Assembly (NCBI GenBank): GCA_001801055.1
Contig: MGWP01000012.1
Location: forward strand, 1-56,024
From: Gallionellales bacterium GWA2_55_18
Lineage (GTDB): Bacteria > Pseudomonadota > Gammaproteobacteria > Burkholderiales > Gallionellaceae
Direction: 5' to 3'
DNA length: 56,024 nucleotides
Positions 46,060-54,632 of the stretch are shown here, in pieces. The first letter of the stretch is position 1; every line of letters starts with the position of its first letter. The notes below the pieces were generated by a model that was given only the letters and a program-made list of their open reading frames with translations, searched no databases and was not told the DNA's origin. The position numbers were made by a program, and so were the translations under genes.

Positions 46060-46195
46060 TAAGGAAACACTGAATAAGTCCGTTCGCCCTGAGCCTGTCG
46101 AAGGGCGAACTTCGCAACTTATTGATCGTGCGCCATCTTCCGTTCATGGTTCGACAGGCTCACCACGAGCGGAATACTTATTCAGTGTTTCCTTA
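46060..46195. mobile_element. MITE enclosing a REP doublet
   Basis: Perfect 20-bp TIR TAAGGAAACACTGAATAAGT; inner CTGAGCCTGTCGAAG...TTCGACAGGCTCAC. Confidence 0.85.
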
Positions 46196-46252
46196 ACGTA
46201 ATTTAACCGGCTCCGCGCTTTTGCGGAGTCCCGCTTGAGCGTAGGGTTGGAC
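46191..46252 (-). other. attC site (last of the array)
   Basis: Minus strand GTCCAAC-CCTACGCTCAAGCGGGACTCCGCAAAAGCGCGGAGCCGGTTAAATTAC-GTTAAGG. Confidence 0.8.
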
Positions 46253-46358
46253 GAAGCCGCTATCGCGGAGAAATGCCCCCCATCAATTTGAGTCAAAGCC
46301 ATAATTCTCCTCAGCCCCGCAAGGGATTTTTTTGCACTTTAACATGAGGAGAATGTCT

Positions 46359-47266
46359 ATGACACACGAATTTCCACAACCATTTGCGAGGCATTACGAG
46401 AGCCTGCTCAAGCGCTTGAAGTTGCGCGGCATGCAGCCCAAGACGGTCGAAGCGTACAGCCACGGCGTGCGCCGGGCAGGCGCGCATTTCGACTACCGCA
46501 TCGATGACTTGAACAAAGATCAACTGACCGATTATTTCGCGGAGATCCTGGATCATCTGTCGTGGAGCACGCTCAAGCACGATTTATATGGGCTGAAGTT
46601 TTACTACGCCTATGTGCTGGGCAAACCCTGGCCCGGAGCCGAGTTGACCAAAGCGCCCAAGGTGTCGCGTCTGCCGGATATCGTGACGGTGGCGCAGATG
46701 CAGCAGATCGTGGATGCGACGCGCGTGCTCAGCTACCGGGTGTTCTTTTTTGCCCTGTACAGCATGGGCTTGCGTCTGGGGGAAGGGTTGCAGTTGCGGG
46801 TGGGCGATCTCGATGCGGGGCGGATGCGGGTGCATGTCCGCGATGCCAAGGGCAACCGGGACCGGCTGGTGCCACTGCCTGCCCACACGCTGGAAGTGTT
46901 GCGCGAGTTCTGGAAAGTGCATCGCAACCCGGTGCTGTTATTTCCCAACCGCAAAAAAGGACTCGGGGGCGCAGCCAATGCGACGACGCACATGGATCGT
47001 GGCGGCGTGCAACAGGCGTTGCGTCAGGTCACCGAGCATATCGGTTTAAAAAAAGAATTACGCCGCATTGCCTTCGCCACAGCTATGCCACCCACCTGAT
47101 CGAAGCGGGCGTCGGCCTGCTCGAAGTGCAAAAAATTCTCGGTCACCACTCGGTGATCACTACCAGCCGCTACACCCATCTCACCGAACATCGCAAAGAG
47201 TCCGCCGAAGCGTACATCAACACTCTGATGGGCCAGATCAAGGTCGGCTGGAACAGAGTCGTATGA
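46359..47266 (+). CDS. Tyrosine recombinase requiring a -1 frameshift at 47048-47054
   Basis: Frame 0 has GLRLGE and [10 protein letters not shown]; frame -1 has [14 protein letters not shown] and TTSRYTH; junction TTA AAA AAA GAA. Confidence 0.85.
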
Positions 47267-48339
47267 TGCGCCTCGCCGATATTGTGTCCCAATACGCGCC
47301 CGACCTGCTCGAACGGCACGGGCACGAACTGCTGCCCGGCCAACTGAAAGCACTCAACGCGTTCGGGCAGTGCCGCAGCGCGGGCGCGCCCAGAATGCTG
47401 CTGTCCTGCGACGGCTGCGAGCAGGAATGCTGGCTACCGCATTCCTGCGGCAACCGGCACTGCCCGCAGTGTCAGGCTCACGAATCGCAGCGCTGGATTG
47501 ACAAGCAGTTGCAGCGGCTGGTGCCGGGCGAGTATTTCTTGATCACGTTTACCTTGCCCGCACAATTCCGTGCGTTGGCCTGGTGGCACCAGCGCGTGCT
47601 GTACGAGCTCATCATTCGCAACGCCTGGGCCACGGCCAACACCTTCAGCCAGAACGACAAGAAGCTGCGCGGGACGGCGGGCGCGGTGGCGGTGTTGCAC
47701 ACGCACAACCGCCGTCTGGATTTCCACCCGCACGTACATCTGGTGATGCCGTCGGTCGCGTTCGATGCCCGGCAGCGGCTGTGGCGCAACAAAGACAGCG
47801 GTTTTCTGTTCGACCACAAAGCGCTGGCCAAAGTATTCCGCGCCAAGATGCTGGACGGCATCAAACGGGCGGGGTTAAAACTTCCCGAGCAGTATCCCGA
47901 AGAATGGGTGGTGCATTGCGAGGCGGTGGGTTCCGGCCAGAAGGCCTTGGTGTATCTGGGACGGTATTTGTATCGCGGGGTGTTGCCCGAGAAAAACATC
48001 GTGTCAAACCGTGATGGCAACGTCACGTTCCGCTACCAGAACAGCGAAACCCGCAAGATGGAAACCCGTACTTTGAGCGGCGTGGCGTTCCTGCGCAAAA
48101 TCCTGCTGCATATCCTCCCGAAGGGTTTCAGGCGCGCGCGCAATTTTGGTTTTCTGCACCCCAACAGCAAGCTGGTCAAACTGGTGCAACTAATCAAACA
48201 GGTGCTTGTTCCACCCAGACCGCGCCCGGTGGTGAGCTGCACCTGCTGCGGCAAGCCAATGCGGATTGTGCGCACGCGGGTGAGGTGCGCGGGGGATGCA
48301 TCGCGCAGCCTGGTGCCGATCAGGGAGACCGCCATGTAA
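47263..48339 (+). CDS. IS91-family rolling-circle (HUH/Y2) transposase
   Basis: Zn-binding [21 protein letters not shown]...HPHVH, YLGRY, HILPKGF. Confidence 0.93.
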
Positions 48340-48559
48340 ACCGGCGCACCCCGCAAACCTGCTGCCACCAGCAGGTGCGGACAAACTCACTCTGAAATCG
48401 GCGGAAGTCGCATAAAACAGCCACTTGGGGCACGGGAAACGGCGATGTCGTCTTGCCCCAAGTGGCATTTTAAAATATCCGGGGGAAGCTCAGCCCTTGA
48501 ATGCGAGGCCGGATTTTTGGAGATATTTGCATAGCGTTTGTGAGGCCCCCGCCGAGCTC

Positions 48560-48622
48560 GTCCAACAAACGGTTCAGATCGCGGCTCGCTTCGCGATCAC
48601 GATCTAACCTTAATCGTTAGGC
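48560..48622 (+). other. attC-like site, opposite polarity to the array
   Basis: GTCCAAC...GGTT(C)AGATCG / CGATCTAACC...GTTAGGC, with the extrahelical-base L-box signature. Confidence 0.78.
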
Positions 48623-48875
48623 TTTCGGTCGAAGCTATCAATGGAAAGGCAGAAGGGTTGCGTATGGACTCGACGGCTAAGTCAATGTCCAGCGATGGCC
48701 AAAAAAGGTGATTTTCGGCAGGCCACTCGACCTCGCATAACTGCTCGATTGTTGCACCCCGAAACCACGGGAAATCAGTAAACGGTAAAAATAACTCTTC
48801 GTCGGCAAGTAACAGCCAGAAGCCATGTTTTGAAACATGGGTGATTTCAGCTTGGGAAGTGAGTGTGCCAGGCAT
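48597..48875 (-). CDS. DUF2442-type putative antitoxin (cassette gene)
   Basis: LPFTDFPWF, HLFWPSLDIDLAVESI; overlaps the upstream DUF4160 gene. Confidence 0.8.
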   Translation of the reverse strand: MPGTLTSQAEITHVSKHGFWLLLADEELFLPFTDFPWFRGATIEQLCEVEWPAENHLFWPSLDIDLAVESIRNPSAFPLIASTESLTIKVRS

Positions 48876-49086
48876 GGGTTATCTCCTCCATGTGAACAAC
48901 GACAAGACGTTGAGCTTCCTTGATTTGTTTGGGCGACAGCCCGGTGCTTGTTGCCAGTGCCAGTCTTGGCGACAGCCAAAATTTGGCTTCCCCATCTGGA
49001 TGGCTGACATGCACATGCATCTTCGGCTCTTCCCGCGAAAAGAAAAAGAACCGAAAGCTACCCTCACGAAAAATTGTCGGCGACAT
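48847..49086 (-). CDS. DUF4160-type putative toxin (cassette gene)
   Basis: MSPTIFREGSFRFFFFSREEPKMHVHV, EAKFWL, AWHTHF. Confidence 0.82.
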   Translation of the reverse strand: MSPTIFREGSFRFFFFSREEPKMHVHVSHPDGEAKFWLSPRLALATSTGLSPKQIKEAQRLVVVHMEEITHAWHTHFPS

Positions 49087-49107
49087 GACCGAATTATAGC
49101 CCCTAAC

Positions 49108-50177
49108 GAATGAAAGGGACTTCCCCGTCCCGAGGCAGCGGAGAAGTTTCCGCAAACGGCAACAAGTGCCATGATGGAATTTTGGTCATTTCATCAACAC
49201 CACGAAAGGGGAAGCCCATGAACATTATCACCGTAGGAATCGATCTCACCAAGAACGTGTTTGCCGTGCACGGCGTAGATGATAACGGCAAGCCCGCACT
49301 GGTCAAGCCGAAAGTTTCACGCGCGGATTCGCTGCCGCTGATCGCGCAACTGCCGCCATGCACCATCGGCATGGAGGCGTGTTCCGGTGCACACCACTGG
49401 GCGCGGCAGTTCAGGCAATACGGCCACACCGTCAAACTGATGGCGCCGAAGTTCGTCGCGCCCTACCGCATGACCGGCAAGCGCGGCAAGAACGATGCGG
49501 CGGATGCCGCCGCGATCTGCGAGGCCGTCACTCGCCCGGCCATGCTTTTCGTCCCGGTCAAGGAAGAACACCAGCAGATCATCCTGTGCCTGCACCGCAC
49601 ACGCCAAGGATTCGTCGAAGAGCGCACCGCCAGCTACAACCGCCTGCGCGGATTGATCGCCGAATTCGGCATCGTCCTGCCGCAGAAAGTGACTGCCTGC
49701 GCCGCGAGATCGGCGCGCACCTGGAAGACCTGCCGGGTTACGCCAAGGCGCGGCTCGGGCGGATTACCAAGGCCGGAGACAACTACCTGCGCAGCCTGCT
49801 CGTCATGGGCGCGCGGGCGGTGCTCAACAGCATCGGCGACAAGCAAGATAGATTCAGCCGCTGGGCGCGCGCACTGCAAGAGCGGCGCGGCTACTGGCGC
49901 GCGGTGATCGCCATCGCGGCGAAGAATGCGCGGCTGGCGTGGGCGGTGTTGAGGTATGGCGAAGATTTCAAACTGGAGCTGGGCAAAGAGTAAAAACCAA
50001 AACCGTCTGCCAAAGAGAAGATACCTGAAAGGAATAACGTGATAGTGACCTCATTCAGCGAATTCCATCAGGGATAGAGGCGAAGGCCTCACCAAAAATC
50101 CGGATGTGTGGCTGCAATCTTTACCTGCCCTCAAAATCATCGAATGAAAGTGCTTGGCAAAAGTGGGCGTCCATGTA
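49108..50177 (+). mobile_element. IS110 family, IS1111-attC type element, internally deleted
   Basis: Splits attC CCCTAAC(G)|TGGAGCTAAGGGG; sub-terminal IRs; downstream non-coding region. Confidence 0.85.
49218..49993 (+). pseudogene. IS110 DEDD transposase with frameshift and internal deletion
   Basis: GIDLTK, GMEAC, KNDAADA; frame change near 49697; C-terminal RLGRITKAGDNYLRSLL lacks the preceding SG motif region. Confidence 0.85.
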
Positions 50178-50232
50178 TGGAGCTAAGGGGCTGCGCGCTT
50201 TTGTGCAGTCCCGCTTGAGCGTAGGGTTAGAG
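50178..50232 (-). other. attC site (R' part displaced to 49101-49108)
   Basis: Minus strand CTCTAAC-CCTACGCTCAAGCGGGACTGCACAAAAGCGCGCAGCCCCTTAGCTCCA|CGTTAGGG. Confidence 0.85.
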
Positions 50233-50452
50233 GCAACGCTTCGAGGCGCTCGGCAAGCCATACCTTAATAATGGACTGCCGGGTTACGCCAAGCTTTCTC
50301 GCTTCACGATCTAACGATTCGATCATCCACGTAGGGAAATCAACATTAACGCGCTTTTGCTTTTGCAGCACGCGCTTCGATTTGGATAAGTCCAGTGAAC
50401 CGGTGATGTCAATACCCTTGTCAAACTGTTGGTCAAAAATTTTAGCTTTCAT
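50183..50452 (-). CDS. BrnA/CopG-like RHH antitoxin; ORF reads through the attC
   Basis: RVNVDFPTWMIESLDREARKLGVTRQSIIKVWLAERL. Confidence 0.85.
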   Translation of the reverse strand: MKAKIFDQQFDKGIDITGSLDLSKSKRVLQKQKRVNVDFPTWMIESLDREARKLGVTRQSIIKVWLAERLEALPLTLRSSGTAQKRAAP

Positions 50453-50705
50453 ATAAGGCAACCTCCTCAGGCCGTGAACGACGAACAGAAATTAGTCGGA
50501 CACTTTCATTTCTATAAGTGATTACGGCTGACCAGTGCTTCCCGTTAATCAGACCTATCAGCAAGTACCGAGGTTCATCTTCTGTTTTCGCGGGAATTTC
50601 CAATAATCTTGGGTCATCCCACAAAGCCTGTGCATCAATAAAATTGATGCCGTGCTTCAGAAGATTAGCTTGGCTTTTCTGCTCGTTAAATTCAAAAGTA
50701 ATCAA
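50442..50705 (-). CDS. BrnT family toxin (start uncertain)
   Basis: FEFNEQKSQANLLKHGINF, VRLISVRRS. Confidence 0.88.
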   Translation of the reverse strand: MITFEFNEQKSQANLLKHGINFIDAQALWDDPRLLEIPAKTEDEPRYLLIGLINGKHWSAVITYRNESVRLISVRRSRPEEVALYES

Positions 50706-50755
50706 AGTATAGAAAATATACCATTTTTGGTGAGAGTGCAAGTGCCGGAGGTTGC

Positions 50756-50815
50756 CTCTAACGTAGAATTAACCGGCTCCGCGCTTTTGCGGCCGGGTTG
50801 AATGTCGGGTTGGGC
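50756..50815 (-). other. attC site (uninterrupted)
   Basis: Minus strand GCCCAAC-CCGACATTCAACCCGGCCGCAAAAGCGCGGAGCCGGTTAATTCTAC-GTTAGAG. Confidence 0.88.
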
Positions 50816-51101: not shown

Positions 51102-51875
51102 TAATGGAATGGACGCCCACTTCCTAATACGGCATCGAAGTGCCAAAGTAGTGGTGGCTTTACTACCACTAACCATAGAAAGGGGCATCCAAAAATGAAG
51201 ATTACGACAATTGGCATCGATCTGGCAAAAAATGTTTTTCAGATACACGGCGTGGATGAACGCGGCAAGGTGGCTGCGCGCAAGCAGTTGAAGCGCGCGG
51301 AGATGTCGAAATATTTCGCCAAACTGGAGCCGTGCTTGATCGGCATGGAGGCTTGCGGCAGCGCGCATCACTGGGCGAGGAAACTGGAAGGGTACGGGCA
51401 CACGGTCAAACTGATGGCGCCCCAGTTTGTAAAACCCTATGTCAAAACGAACAAGAACGACATGGCCGATGCGGAAGCGATCTGCGAAGCGGTGTGCAGG
51501 CCGAACATGCGGTTTGTCGCAAAGAAGACGGTCGAGCAGCAAGCGATTATTTCGGTGCACCGGGCGCGCCAGGGATTCGTGAAAGCCCGCACGGCGCAGG
51601 GCAACCAGATACGGGGTTTGCTCTCAGAGTTCGGGATCGTGATACCACAGGGTATTGCCTCGATCACGAAGCAGGTGCCGGAGATTCTGGAGGACGGAGA
51701 GAACGGATTGCCTGGCGCGATGCGCAACCTGATAGAACGGCTGACGGAGACCGGTTGTAGTTTAGCAGTCCTTCACCTTCTCGCACGATGCAAGCAGCGC
51801 GATTTGAAACGGAACGGAGAATGGCAATGAGATAGAAATTTCAAAACCGCTTGCTAAATTGGGGAAGCCCTTGTA
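51102..51875 (+). mobile_element. IS110 family, IS1111-attC type element, truncated
   Basis: Splits attC GACACAACG|GTAAAGTGAGGGG; sub-terminal IRs 7 bp and 3 bp from the ends. Confidence 0.85.
51195..51830 (+). pseudogene. IS110 transposase, N-terminal half only
   Basis: GIDLAKNVFQIHG, GMEACGSAHHWAR, KNDMADAEAI; similarity is lost after about 51750. Confidence 0.85.
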
Positions 51876-53643: not shown

Positions 53644-53943
53644 TCACCCCTCCCGCGCCGCCAGCCACTGCTGAAACGAATGCGGGCTTTCACCAGAGCG
53701 CTTGCCAAGCAGAAGCCCCTCGATACTGATGTCTTCGTCAATGTCGTCCCAATGAATGCCAGCACCTTGTCCAATCAGTCGCCAGCACTTGCGTTCTTCC
53801 GGCTTGGCGTGGGCGAGACGCGGATACCAGCCGAGCGGCGCAGAGAGCGTGCGGCCATCTTCCAAATCCACGGTCAGAGCCTCGTCGGATACCGAAACAT
53901 GCTGTGCGTTCGGGATTGAGATTTCAGTTTGCGAAATAATCAT
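53644..53943 (-). CDS. DUF2442-type putative antitoxin
   Basis: VDLEDGRTLSAPLGWYPRL, GIHWDDIDEDISIEGLL. Confidence 0.85.
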   Translation of the reverse strand: MIISQTEISIPNAQHVSVSDEALTVDLEDGRTLSAPLGWYPRLAHAKPEERKCWRLIGQGAGIHWDDIDEDISIEGLLLGKRSGESPHSFQQWLAAREG

Positions 53944-53951
53944 TCCATGCC

Positions 53952-54273
53952 TTCATGGCACTACCTTAAGCACAATGATGGCAAACCCCCTCCCCCTTCA
54001 AGGGGAGGGTTGGGGTGGCGGCCATGACACGGCGTTGCGAAGCATCTGGAGCGGGAATGGCCGCCTCACACCCGCTCCCGCAAACGGCTGGCTGCGCCAG
54101 TAACGTGTCGCGGGATGTGGGGATGGGGTTGAATGTGGCGAAATAACCCATCCCCATCCTAGCCTTCCCCTTGAAGGGGAAGGGACGATAGCTCCCCACG
54201 ATTTTTTTGGGGAAAGGAAATATGTTGATTTGTGCAGCATCTGGTGCTTTTACGCTTAAGGTAGTGCCATGAA
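53952..54273. mobile_element. 322-bp composite MITE
   Basis: Perfect 19-bp TIR TTCATGGCACTACCTTAAG; 9-bp direct repeat TTCCATGCC at 53943-53951 and 54274-54282. Confidence 0.88.
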
Positions 54274-54481
54274 TTCCATGCCTCCATTATTGTTTCGCGG
54301 TGCTCCACTATGAGGTTTTCGACCTTGACGAGTTCGGCGCGACTGAACCCGATGCTGTGCTGCAGCTTTACCGGAACCAGCCAGAACTTGGCAAATGCAG
54401 CATCGCACTCGATATGGATGTGCATGGGTTCGTCACGGTCACCGGAGTAAAAAAAGAGCCGATCCGCATCACCGTTGGCAT
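54274..54481 (-). pseudogene. DUF4160-type toxin, frameshifted and interrupted
   Basis: MPTVMRIG / LFFYSGDRDEPMHIHI..AKFWL..EAWN; its tail DYFAN* lies on the other side of the MITE. Confidence 0.78.
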
Positions 54482-54632
54482 CGTAAGTGCTCCGTAGTAA
54501 AGCAAGCGACTCTTGTAGGTCTATTCTCAAAGCGCCACAGTGAGCAAGTACTGTACTCAGGGCTGATCGAGGCATCTCCGCAGGGCGAGCAAGCGGTGGC
54601 GGCTCTTGGTTGTTTATTGACGAAGCAAGTGG

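Follow-up and report, generated by a model that had tools for sequence, protein, structure and literature searches.

What kind of element lodges backwards in the attC site of an integron cassette, and by what route does it get there? The question is raised by a contig of Gallionellales bacterium GWA2_55_18 (MGWP01000012.1, forward strand), of which 56,024 nt were analysed; this whole stretch is called the window here, and all coordinates are window positions. An element of 2370 bp (46246-48615) carries, on the + strand, a tyrosine recombinase (YR) gene followed by an IS91-family HUH transposase gene, and its right end resembles an attC. Its insertion splits the R'' box in the attC of a DUF2442 cassette, in the orientation opposite to the array. 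We consider it confirmed that this is an IS91-family element with a YR and an attC-like right end, reversed at the R'' of a cassette attC.

An IS91-family element with an attC-like end

Similarity among homologues begins at 46246 and ends near 48618-48620. Since GTTAGGC at 48616-48622 is the R'' of the host attC, the right edge of the element falls at about 48615-48618. Six close matches to DUF2442 were found among 251 family genomes. Four of them (L202, L203, L204 and L207) have an intact attC at the insertion point, L206 carries the element and is identical to L002 over the compared stretch, and L205 is without an attC at the corresponding point. The empty alleles L202 and L204 read GCCTAAC-CCTACGCTCAAG, L203 is one base off and L207 has a different attC body. 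Compared with the empty alleles, the insertion shares GTT alone, with no target duplication beyond it. The first-pass annotation, made from the letters of this stretch, had predicted that deletion of the element restores the normal DUF2442 attC, and L202 and L204 bear this out. Its start GTTGGAC at 46246 and complementary GTCCAAC at 48560 also match the sequence; the closing GTTAGGC that it gave to the element belongs to the host. It had placed the crossover at the GTT of R'' in opposite polarity: reversed insertion at R'' stands (38 against 2 junctions, see below), with the insertion point somewhere inside the shared GTT.

The right end has the boxes of an attC: GTCCAAC (R'') at 48560, GTTCAGAT (L'', with a bulged C) at 48572 and ATCTAAC (L') at 48602, followed by GTTAGGC at 48616. 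Only when the + strand is taken as the top strand does its score qualify as attC (12.0 versus 8.5). The covariation of 55 hairpin variants comprises two-sided changes in 5 of 15 pairs; none of 500 shuffles scored as high, in a test inflated by the relatedness of the variants, and slid controls were far lower. The bulged base varies freely (C in 67, T in 4 and A in 3 of 74), and each of the 74 right ends found carries the hairpin. At 7 nt the L'-R' spacer is atypical for a cassette attC, and the site is not detected by our covariance model of array attC sites (trained on 16 sites located away from any element junction, the window supplying one). An attC of the element's own with a bulged base had thus been recognised correctly in its bulged L'', its + polarity and its covarying pairs, and less so in its spacer, which is not of 5-6 nt, and in its escape from the array model. 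The further claim, of a mobile unit that is self-contained and brings an attC-like end of its own, is supported.

The two ends fit each other. Across lineages R'' is complementary to the left end (GTTGGAC/GTCCAAC, GTTGAAC/GTTCAAC and, in L035, GTTCAAG/CTTGAAC), and this pairing is complete only across the end-to-end junction, where it puts the GTT/AAC core in duplex, as would suit a recombinase. The end-to-end junction, which the first-pass annotation had predicted, is present as TTA(A/T)TC-GTTGGAC in two contigs, L005 and L176. In L005 the bottom strand is the best-folding strand of the junction, with -23 kcal/mol (z -4.8); the integrated window end reaches -14 (z -1.4). Read on the bottom strand, left ends consist of a palindrome, then GTCC, GTTC or CTTG, then AAC, and the left end is therefore both terIS-like and an R' box. 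Its hairpin in the window is weak (4 bp, z -1.5). GGAC of the element's left end reads GTCC on the bottom strand, which is among the IS91-family cleavage tetranucleotides listed in PMC13181058. At the right-end hairpin, a canonical tetranucleotide precedes the fold in the joined form only.

Right junctions read GTT in 70 of 74 cases (GTC 2, GAT 1 and, in L123, ATT 1). Left ends found without forcing this motif read GTT in 34/34 genome loci; of eight left-end matches in a viral collection four were due to chance, and the four real ends read GTT once, GCT once and ATT twice.

Catalytic residues are conserved in both enzymes. The transposase keeps HxH in 71 and YxxxY in 69 of 72 copies, and each position of the YR catalytic set R-K-H-R-H-Y is kept in 45-47 of 47 copies. 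The YR gene was expected from the earlier reading and is indeed present, although it lies in two frames with a -1 shift. The shift is at -1, at an A run, in 33 of the 47 copies, which rules out sequencing error as its cause; 9 copies are in frame and 5 at +1, and distant members are in frame. Downstream of the shift the nonsynonymous rate (pN) is well below the synonymous rate (pS) in 7 of 8 pairs, as in purifying selection; one C-part pair (L004) is an outlier and probably misregistered. No stimulatory RNA structure was found 3' of the shift (z 0.04). Among solved structures an in-frame YR matches IntI4 best (101 bits) and XerA nearly equally (98), and the YR reaches 80.9 + 50.4 bits against TIGR02249, below the cut-off of 265. 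The YR stop codon overlaps the transposase start. An excess of sigma-70 promoters or terminators was not seen, and an Rfam scan returned nothing relevant.

Targets and polarity across the family

Homologues were collected at 41 loci by a genome scan and at 30 more by an order-wide search. A metagenome scan for the left end gave 120 loci in 6 of 64 parts, and about 1400 metagenome stretches are estimated overall. The host genome, 72% complete, has one copy. Five of seven distant plasmid relatives (33-41% transposase identity) and an E. coli copy share this left end and have a hairpin at the right one; in the other two plasmid relatives (L233 and L235) an end search did not find ends of this type. 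The E. coli copy is an intact relative (L228:3003-5350) on the resistance plasmid NZ_LT985243.1, reversed at the R'' of aadA1, and it parts aadA1 from its attC. A distant subfamily (L195, L197) has left ends that start ATTGAAC. Non-autonomous mini-elements with both ends and no genes also occur (L118:580-947, 368 bp; L192:2799-2950, about 150 bp).

Of 155 left ends, 136 had a distinct flank no shorter than 100 nt and were kept as junctions, the window's own being left out. Several of them share one genome, so they are not fully independent. One (L059) is from the unpublished genome G294; it is not called attC and has no effect on the conclusions. With a covariance model score of at least 18 bits as the attC call, 38 of the 136 junctions lie at the R'' of an attC in reversed orientation, all at offset 0, and two (L127 and L131) at R' in normal polarity. 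A symmetrical rule gives 32 reversed and 5 normal, two of the latter being the element's own junction, compared with 9 and 6 of 638 GTTs in controls; an earlier strict rule, which under-called attC, gives 22 and 3 of 136. Of 23 other attC matches at the junction loci, 21 run opposite to the element. That reverse insertion at R'' characterises the family is supported by our counts (38 versus 2). The first-pass annotation had proposed entry without regard to cassette polarity; the polarity is instead fixed, opposite to the array. In L131 (- strand positions 135 and 197) a single attC bears two left ends back to back, reversed at R'' in one case and normal at R' in the other. At L070:1505-1563 the element hairpin is joined to a reversed attC half through the GTT of its L'' box, which may mark a crossover at an L box.

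Model and rule jointly call attC at 55 loci, so most targets are not recognisable attC (about 60-70% of junctions lie outside one). In 51 targets without an attC call and with weak folding, A is found at -8 in 33, T at -11 in 31 and C at -1 in 2, against backgrounds of 22-29%. After removal of 10 targets that look half-site-like by eye, A-8 remains in 24/41 and T-11 in 22/41. A matrix made from non-attC targets ranks the reversed R'' side higher than the R' side in 19/19 intact attC sites (three of 22 were skipped for ragged ends). It is therefore likely that polarity comes from linear target recognition, and neither top-strand folding nor selection is required. An IS91-family tetranucleotide (GTTC, CTTG, GTCC or CTCG) follows GTT in 1 of 63 right flanks, junction copies excluded, and is inside all left ends examined. 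The earlier annotation had set against its own view homologues with canonical ends and no attC-like hairpin that insert outside attC. The family has something of both: a hairpin at every right end found and 38 junctions at attC, together with a terIS-like left end and a majority of junctions outside attC.

How the element may move

On the sequence evidence we lean towards a movement in two steps, in which the HUH transposase would copy out the bottom strand as a single-stranded circle, as in IS91, and the element's own YR would then insert it. The joined ends would complete the attC-like fold on the bottom strand and serve as the donor site, and the YR would act, like IntI on attI or attG, on a linear and probably double-stranded target. 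What it would recognise there is a motif with T at -11, A at -8 and no C at -1, followed by GTTAG. Of the two halves of an attC, R''-spacer-L'' read in reverse matches this motif more closely than L'-R', and the polarity would follow from that. Recombinase output would be held down by the -1 shift. IS91 inserts the bottom-strand circle only (PMC13181058), and the same strand bears the better fold of the element's junction, which argues for this route. So do the reverse bias at R'', the fold of the L005 junction, the tracking of the left end by R'', the covarying hairpin with its variable bulge, the scarcity of IS91-family tetranucleotides in right flanks, the motif of the non-attC targets and the conserved YR catalytic residues. 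Whether all parts belong to one hybrid pathway (an IS91 HUH circle, an attC-like folded junction, a dedicated YR lacking the IntI insertion, and linear targets with the reversed attC R'' as hotspots) we judge to be evenly balanced.

Several observations weigh against YR insertion of a transposase-made circle. The tetranucleotide at the right junction is target-derived and non-canonical, and a restart of the transposase from an inserted copy is not accounted for. In 14 of 38 complete elements GTTGAAC goes with GTCCAAC, which gives a wobble on the bottom strand only. The junctions of L005 and L176 may be a circle or a head-to-tail tandem, and among the joints listed for contigs of six runs none is end-to-end, contigs being prone to drop rare forms. 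Some 33 residues of the IntI-specific insertion are missing from the YR (80 versus 113 residues), and in a quick tree the YRs form a clade of their own, which does not settle a tie to IntI.

The main rival, which we hold to be unlikely, is that the HUH transposase performs both copy-out and insertion as in IS91, with the attC top strand (AAC, then a hairpin) mimicking an origin and the YR resolving circles or cointegrates. TnpA by itself does insert IS91 circles (PMC13181058), the left end is terIS-like, target duplication is absent, the YR is without the IntI insertion and one right junction is ATT (L123). Such insertion does not fit the near absence of the element's own tetranucleotide from target flanks (1/63), the conserved positions on both sides of the core, the 51 targets without a strong hairpin, and the conserved pairing of R'' and left end that buries the core. 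Improbable in our view is a scheme in which the YR excises and integrates the element and the HUH protein only amplifies the free circle from its complete tetranucleotide-AAC junction, in the style of a rolling-circle replicon. It would make sense of the canonical tetranucleotide that precedes the right-end hairpin in the joined form only, but there is no excision product among the joints listed for the window's runs, and the element's right end is poor on the target matrix (-0.9 and 0.2 bits).

Survivor bias could also produce the polarity. The circle might be handled like any other cassette by the host IntI, which would insert it at attG-like sites or into the top strand of an attC, and copies in normal polarity would later be excised. 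IntI inserts cassettes at GWT sites (bioRxiv 2022.09.11.507474), an intI is found in the host genome on another contig (G000:C75:20841-21951) and beside L003 and L010, and there are two copies in normal polarity (L127 and L131). We give this a slender chance: the frame of the host's intI is broken by a short insert of repeat-like sequence, top strands are recombined by IntI at frequencies lower by orders of magnitude (PMC5027507), the non-attC motif is unlike the attG consensus (GWT, with CRGM at +6 to +9; bioRxiv 2022.09.11.507474), and the linear motif predicts the polarity without selection. That the whole is an ordinary cassette of normal polarity with its genes written backwards, the hairpin at 48560-48615 belonging to the DUF2442 cassette, is the least credible of all and in effect refuted, since it is the other attC that occurs in the empty DUF2442 alleles. 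Both sites do read RYYYAAC...GTTRRRY on the - strand; against this, the hairpin accompanies the element in 74/74 right ends and its bulge marks + polarity.

Known systems and the surrounding array

The element is a widespread and mechanistically surprising variant of the IS91 family. It shares with IS91, IS801, IS1294 and IS1294b the HUH Y2 transposase with a zinc domain, the lack of target duplication, the terIS-like end (tetranucleotide and palindrome) upstream of tnpA, and an upstream gene that overlaps the tnpA start (PMC13181058). It differs in that the upstream gene is a YR, the right end is attC-like and the targets share GTT and a bipartite motif, not GTTC/CTTG. Terminal inverted repeats of the DDE type are absent, and so is an oriIS motif of the family from 47117-50380 of the window. 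The gene pair of YR and transposase is that of a known IS91 subgroup with an integrase (ISShvi3, ISSod25, ISWz1). The element and this subgroup are probably the same family. In one paper ISShvi3 is reported beside an attC, and the same passage states that no IS was found interrupting an attC; it gives no polarity, own attC, target motif or mechanism. We found no published description of an own attC, reverse targeting or mechanism in a search of the open-licence literature.

Compared with cassettes moved by IntI (attC x attI, attC x attG), the element also has a putative folded donor with R and L boxes, a bulged base and an AAC/GTT core, a probably linear target, and an R'' complementary to the start of the unit. 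Unlike cassettes, it encodes its own enzymes, its YR lacks the IntI insertion, its spacer is 7 nt and it enters R'' reversed; a cassette would insert at attI or attC R' in array polarity, and of our 136 junctions 2 have that polarity and 38 are reversed. Group IIC-attC introns and IS1111-attC elements likewise invade attC, and the introns insert opposite to cassettes (PMC9229058) and part the gene from its attC (PMC8876359). They use other enzymes (a reverse transcriptase and a DEDD recombinase, respectively), and the passages concerned describe no attC of their own. In CTXphi and other Xer-exploiting elements an HUH-made single strand folds and is then integrated by a tyrosine recombinase (PMC9345347, in part). 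Those rely on host XerCD at dif, whereas the element brings its own YR and has many targets.

If our reading is true, the element would add a third class to the attC invaders, that of the self-mobile cassette, and could stand as a candidate living model for the origin of single-strand hairpin recombination and of cassettes. It would link IS91 rolling-circle transposition with integron attC recombination, two systems so far studied apart, give the recombinase of two-gene IS91 elements a testable role, and offer a natural test of the need for the IntI insertion in hairpin recombination. A likely consequence is that the invaded cassette keeps an inverted site and would be excised only along with the element. 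The relative that parts aadA1 from its attC in the E. coli plasmid bears on the locking or rearrangement of cassette arrays.

Table 1. Features of the element and of the invaded cassette (window positions)
Feature	Position	Strand	Basis
Left end: GTT core, GGAC, small palindrome; terIS-like, also R' of joined site	46246..46268	+	Sharp homologue boundary
YR gene, two frames	46359..47266	+	PF13495 and PF00589; HxxR, H, Y downstream of shift
TTTAAAAAAAG run at -1 shift	47045..47055	+	Likely programmed frameshift or slippage site
IS91-family HUH (Y2) transposase, 358 aa, zinc domain, HxH, YxxxY	47263..48339	+	NF033538, 352.7 bits (cut-off 125)
Right-end attC-like hairpin: extended R'' arm, GTCCAAC, 5-nt spacer, bulged L box, stem, L', 7-nt spacer, GTT	48552..48618	+	Covariation in 55 variants; folding
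Host attC of DUF2442 cassette: AAC of R'', spacer, L'', stem, L', R'	46191..46248	-	Model match 46191-46252, 40.5 bits; empty alleles L202-L204
Host R'' of DUF2442 cassette (GCCTAAC)	48616..48622	-	Insertion point inside GTT; empty alleles
DUF4160-DUF2442 genes, attC invaded	48597..49089	-	PF13711 and PF10387

The cassette array is on the - strand, flanked by hemC and an ABC-type gene, with no intI in the array. The covariance model finds four attC sites in the window, every one on the - strand; that of the DUF2442 cassette is severed from its gene by the element. The invaded attC (46198-46245) looks like a hybrid, its left half resembling the site at 50169-50232 and its right half that at 50756-50815, and its L'' and L' pair poorly. 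A 132-bp miniature inverted-repeat transposable element (MITE), bounded by long terminal inverted repeats and by what looks like a TA duplication, lies in its R' (46062-46193); relatives of it are abundant in groundwater runs. Two broken IS110-family elements (about 49110-50165 and 51110-51870) are each within an attC near L'/R', and we take them to be of the IS1111-attC type. Together with the IS91-family element and the MITE, three kinds of element have thus struck attC sites in this array. The array is also rich in toxin-antitoxin-like pairs, two of DUF4160-DUF2442 and one of BrnT with a CopG antitoxin (48597-49089, 50183-50741 and 53644-54575).
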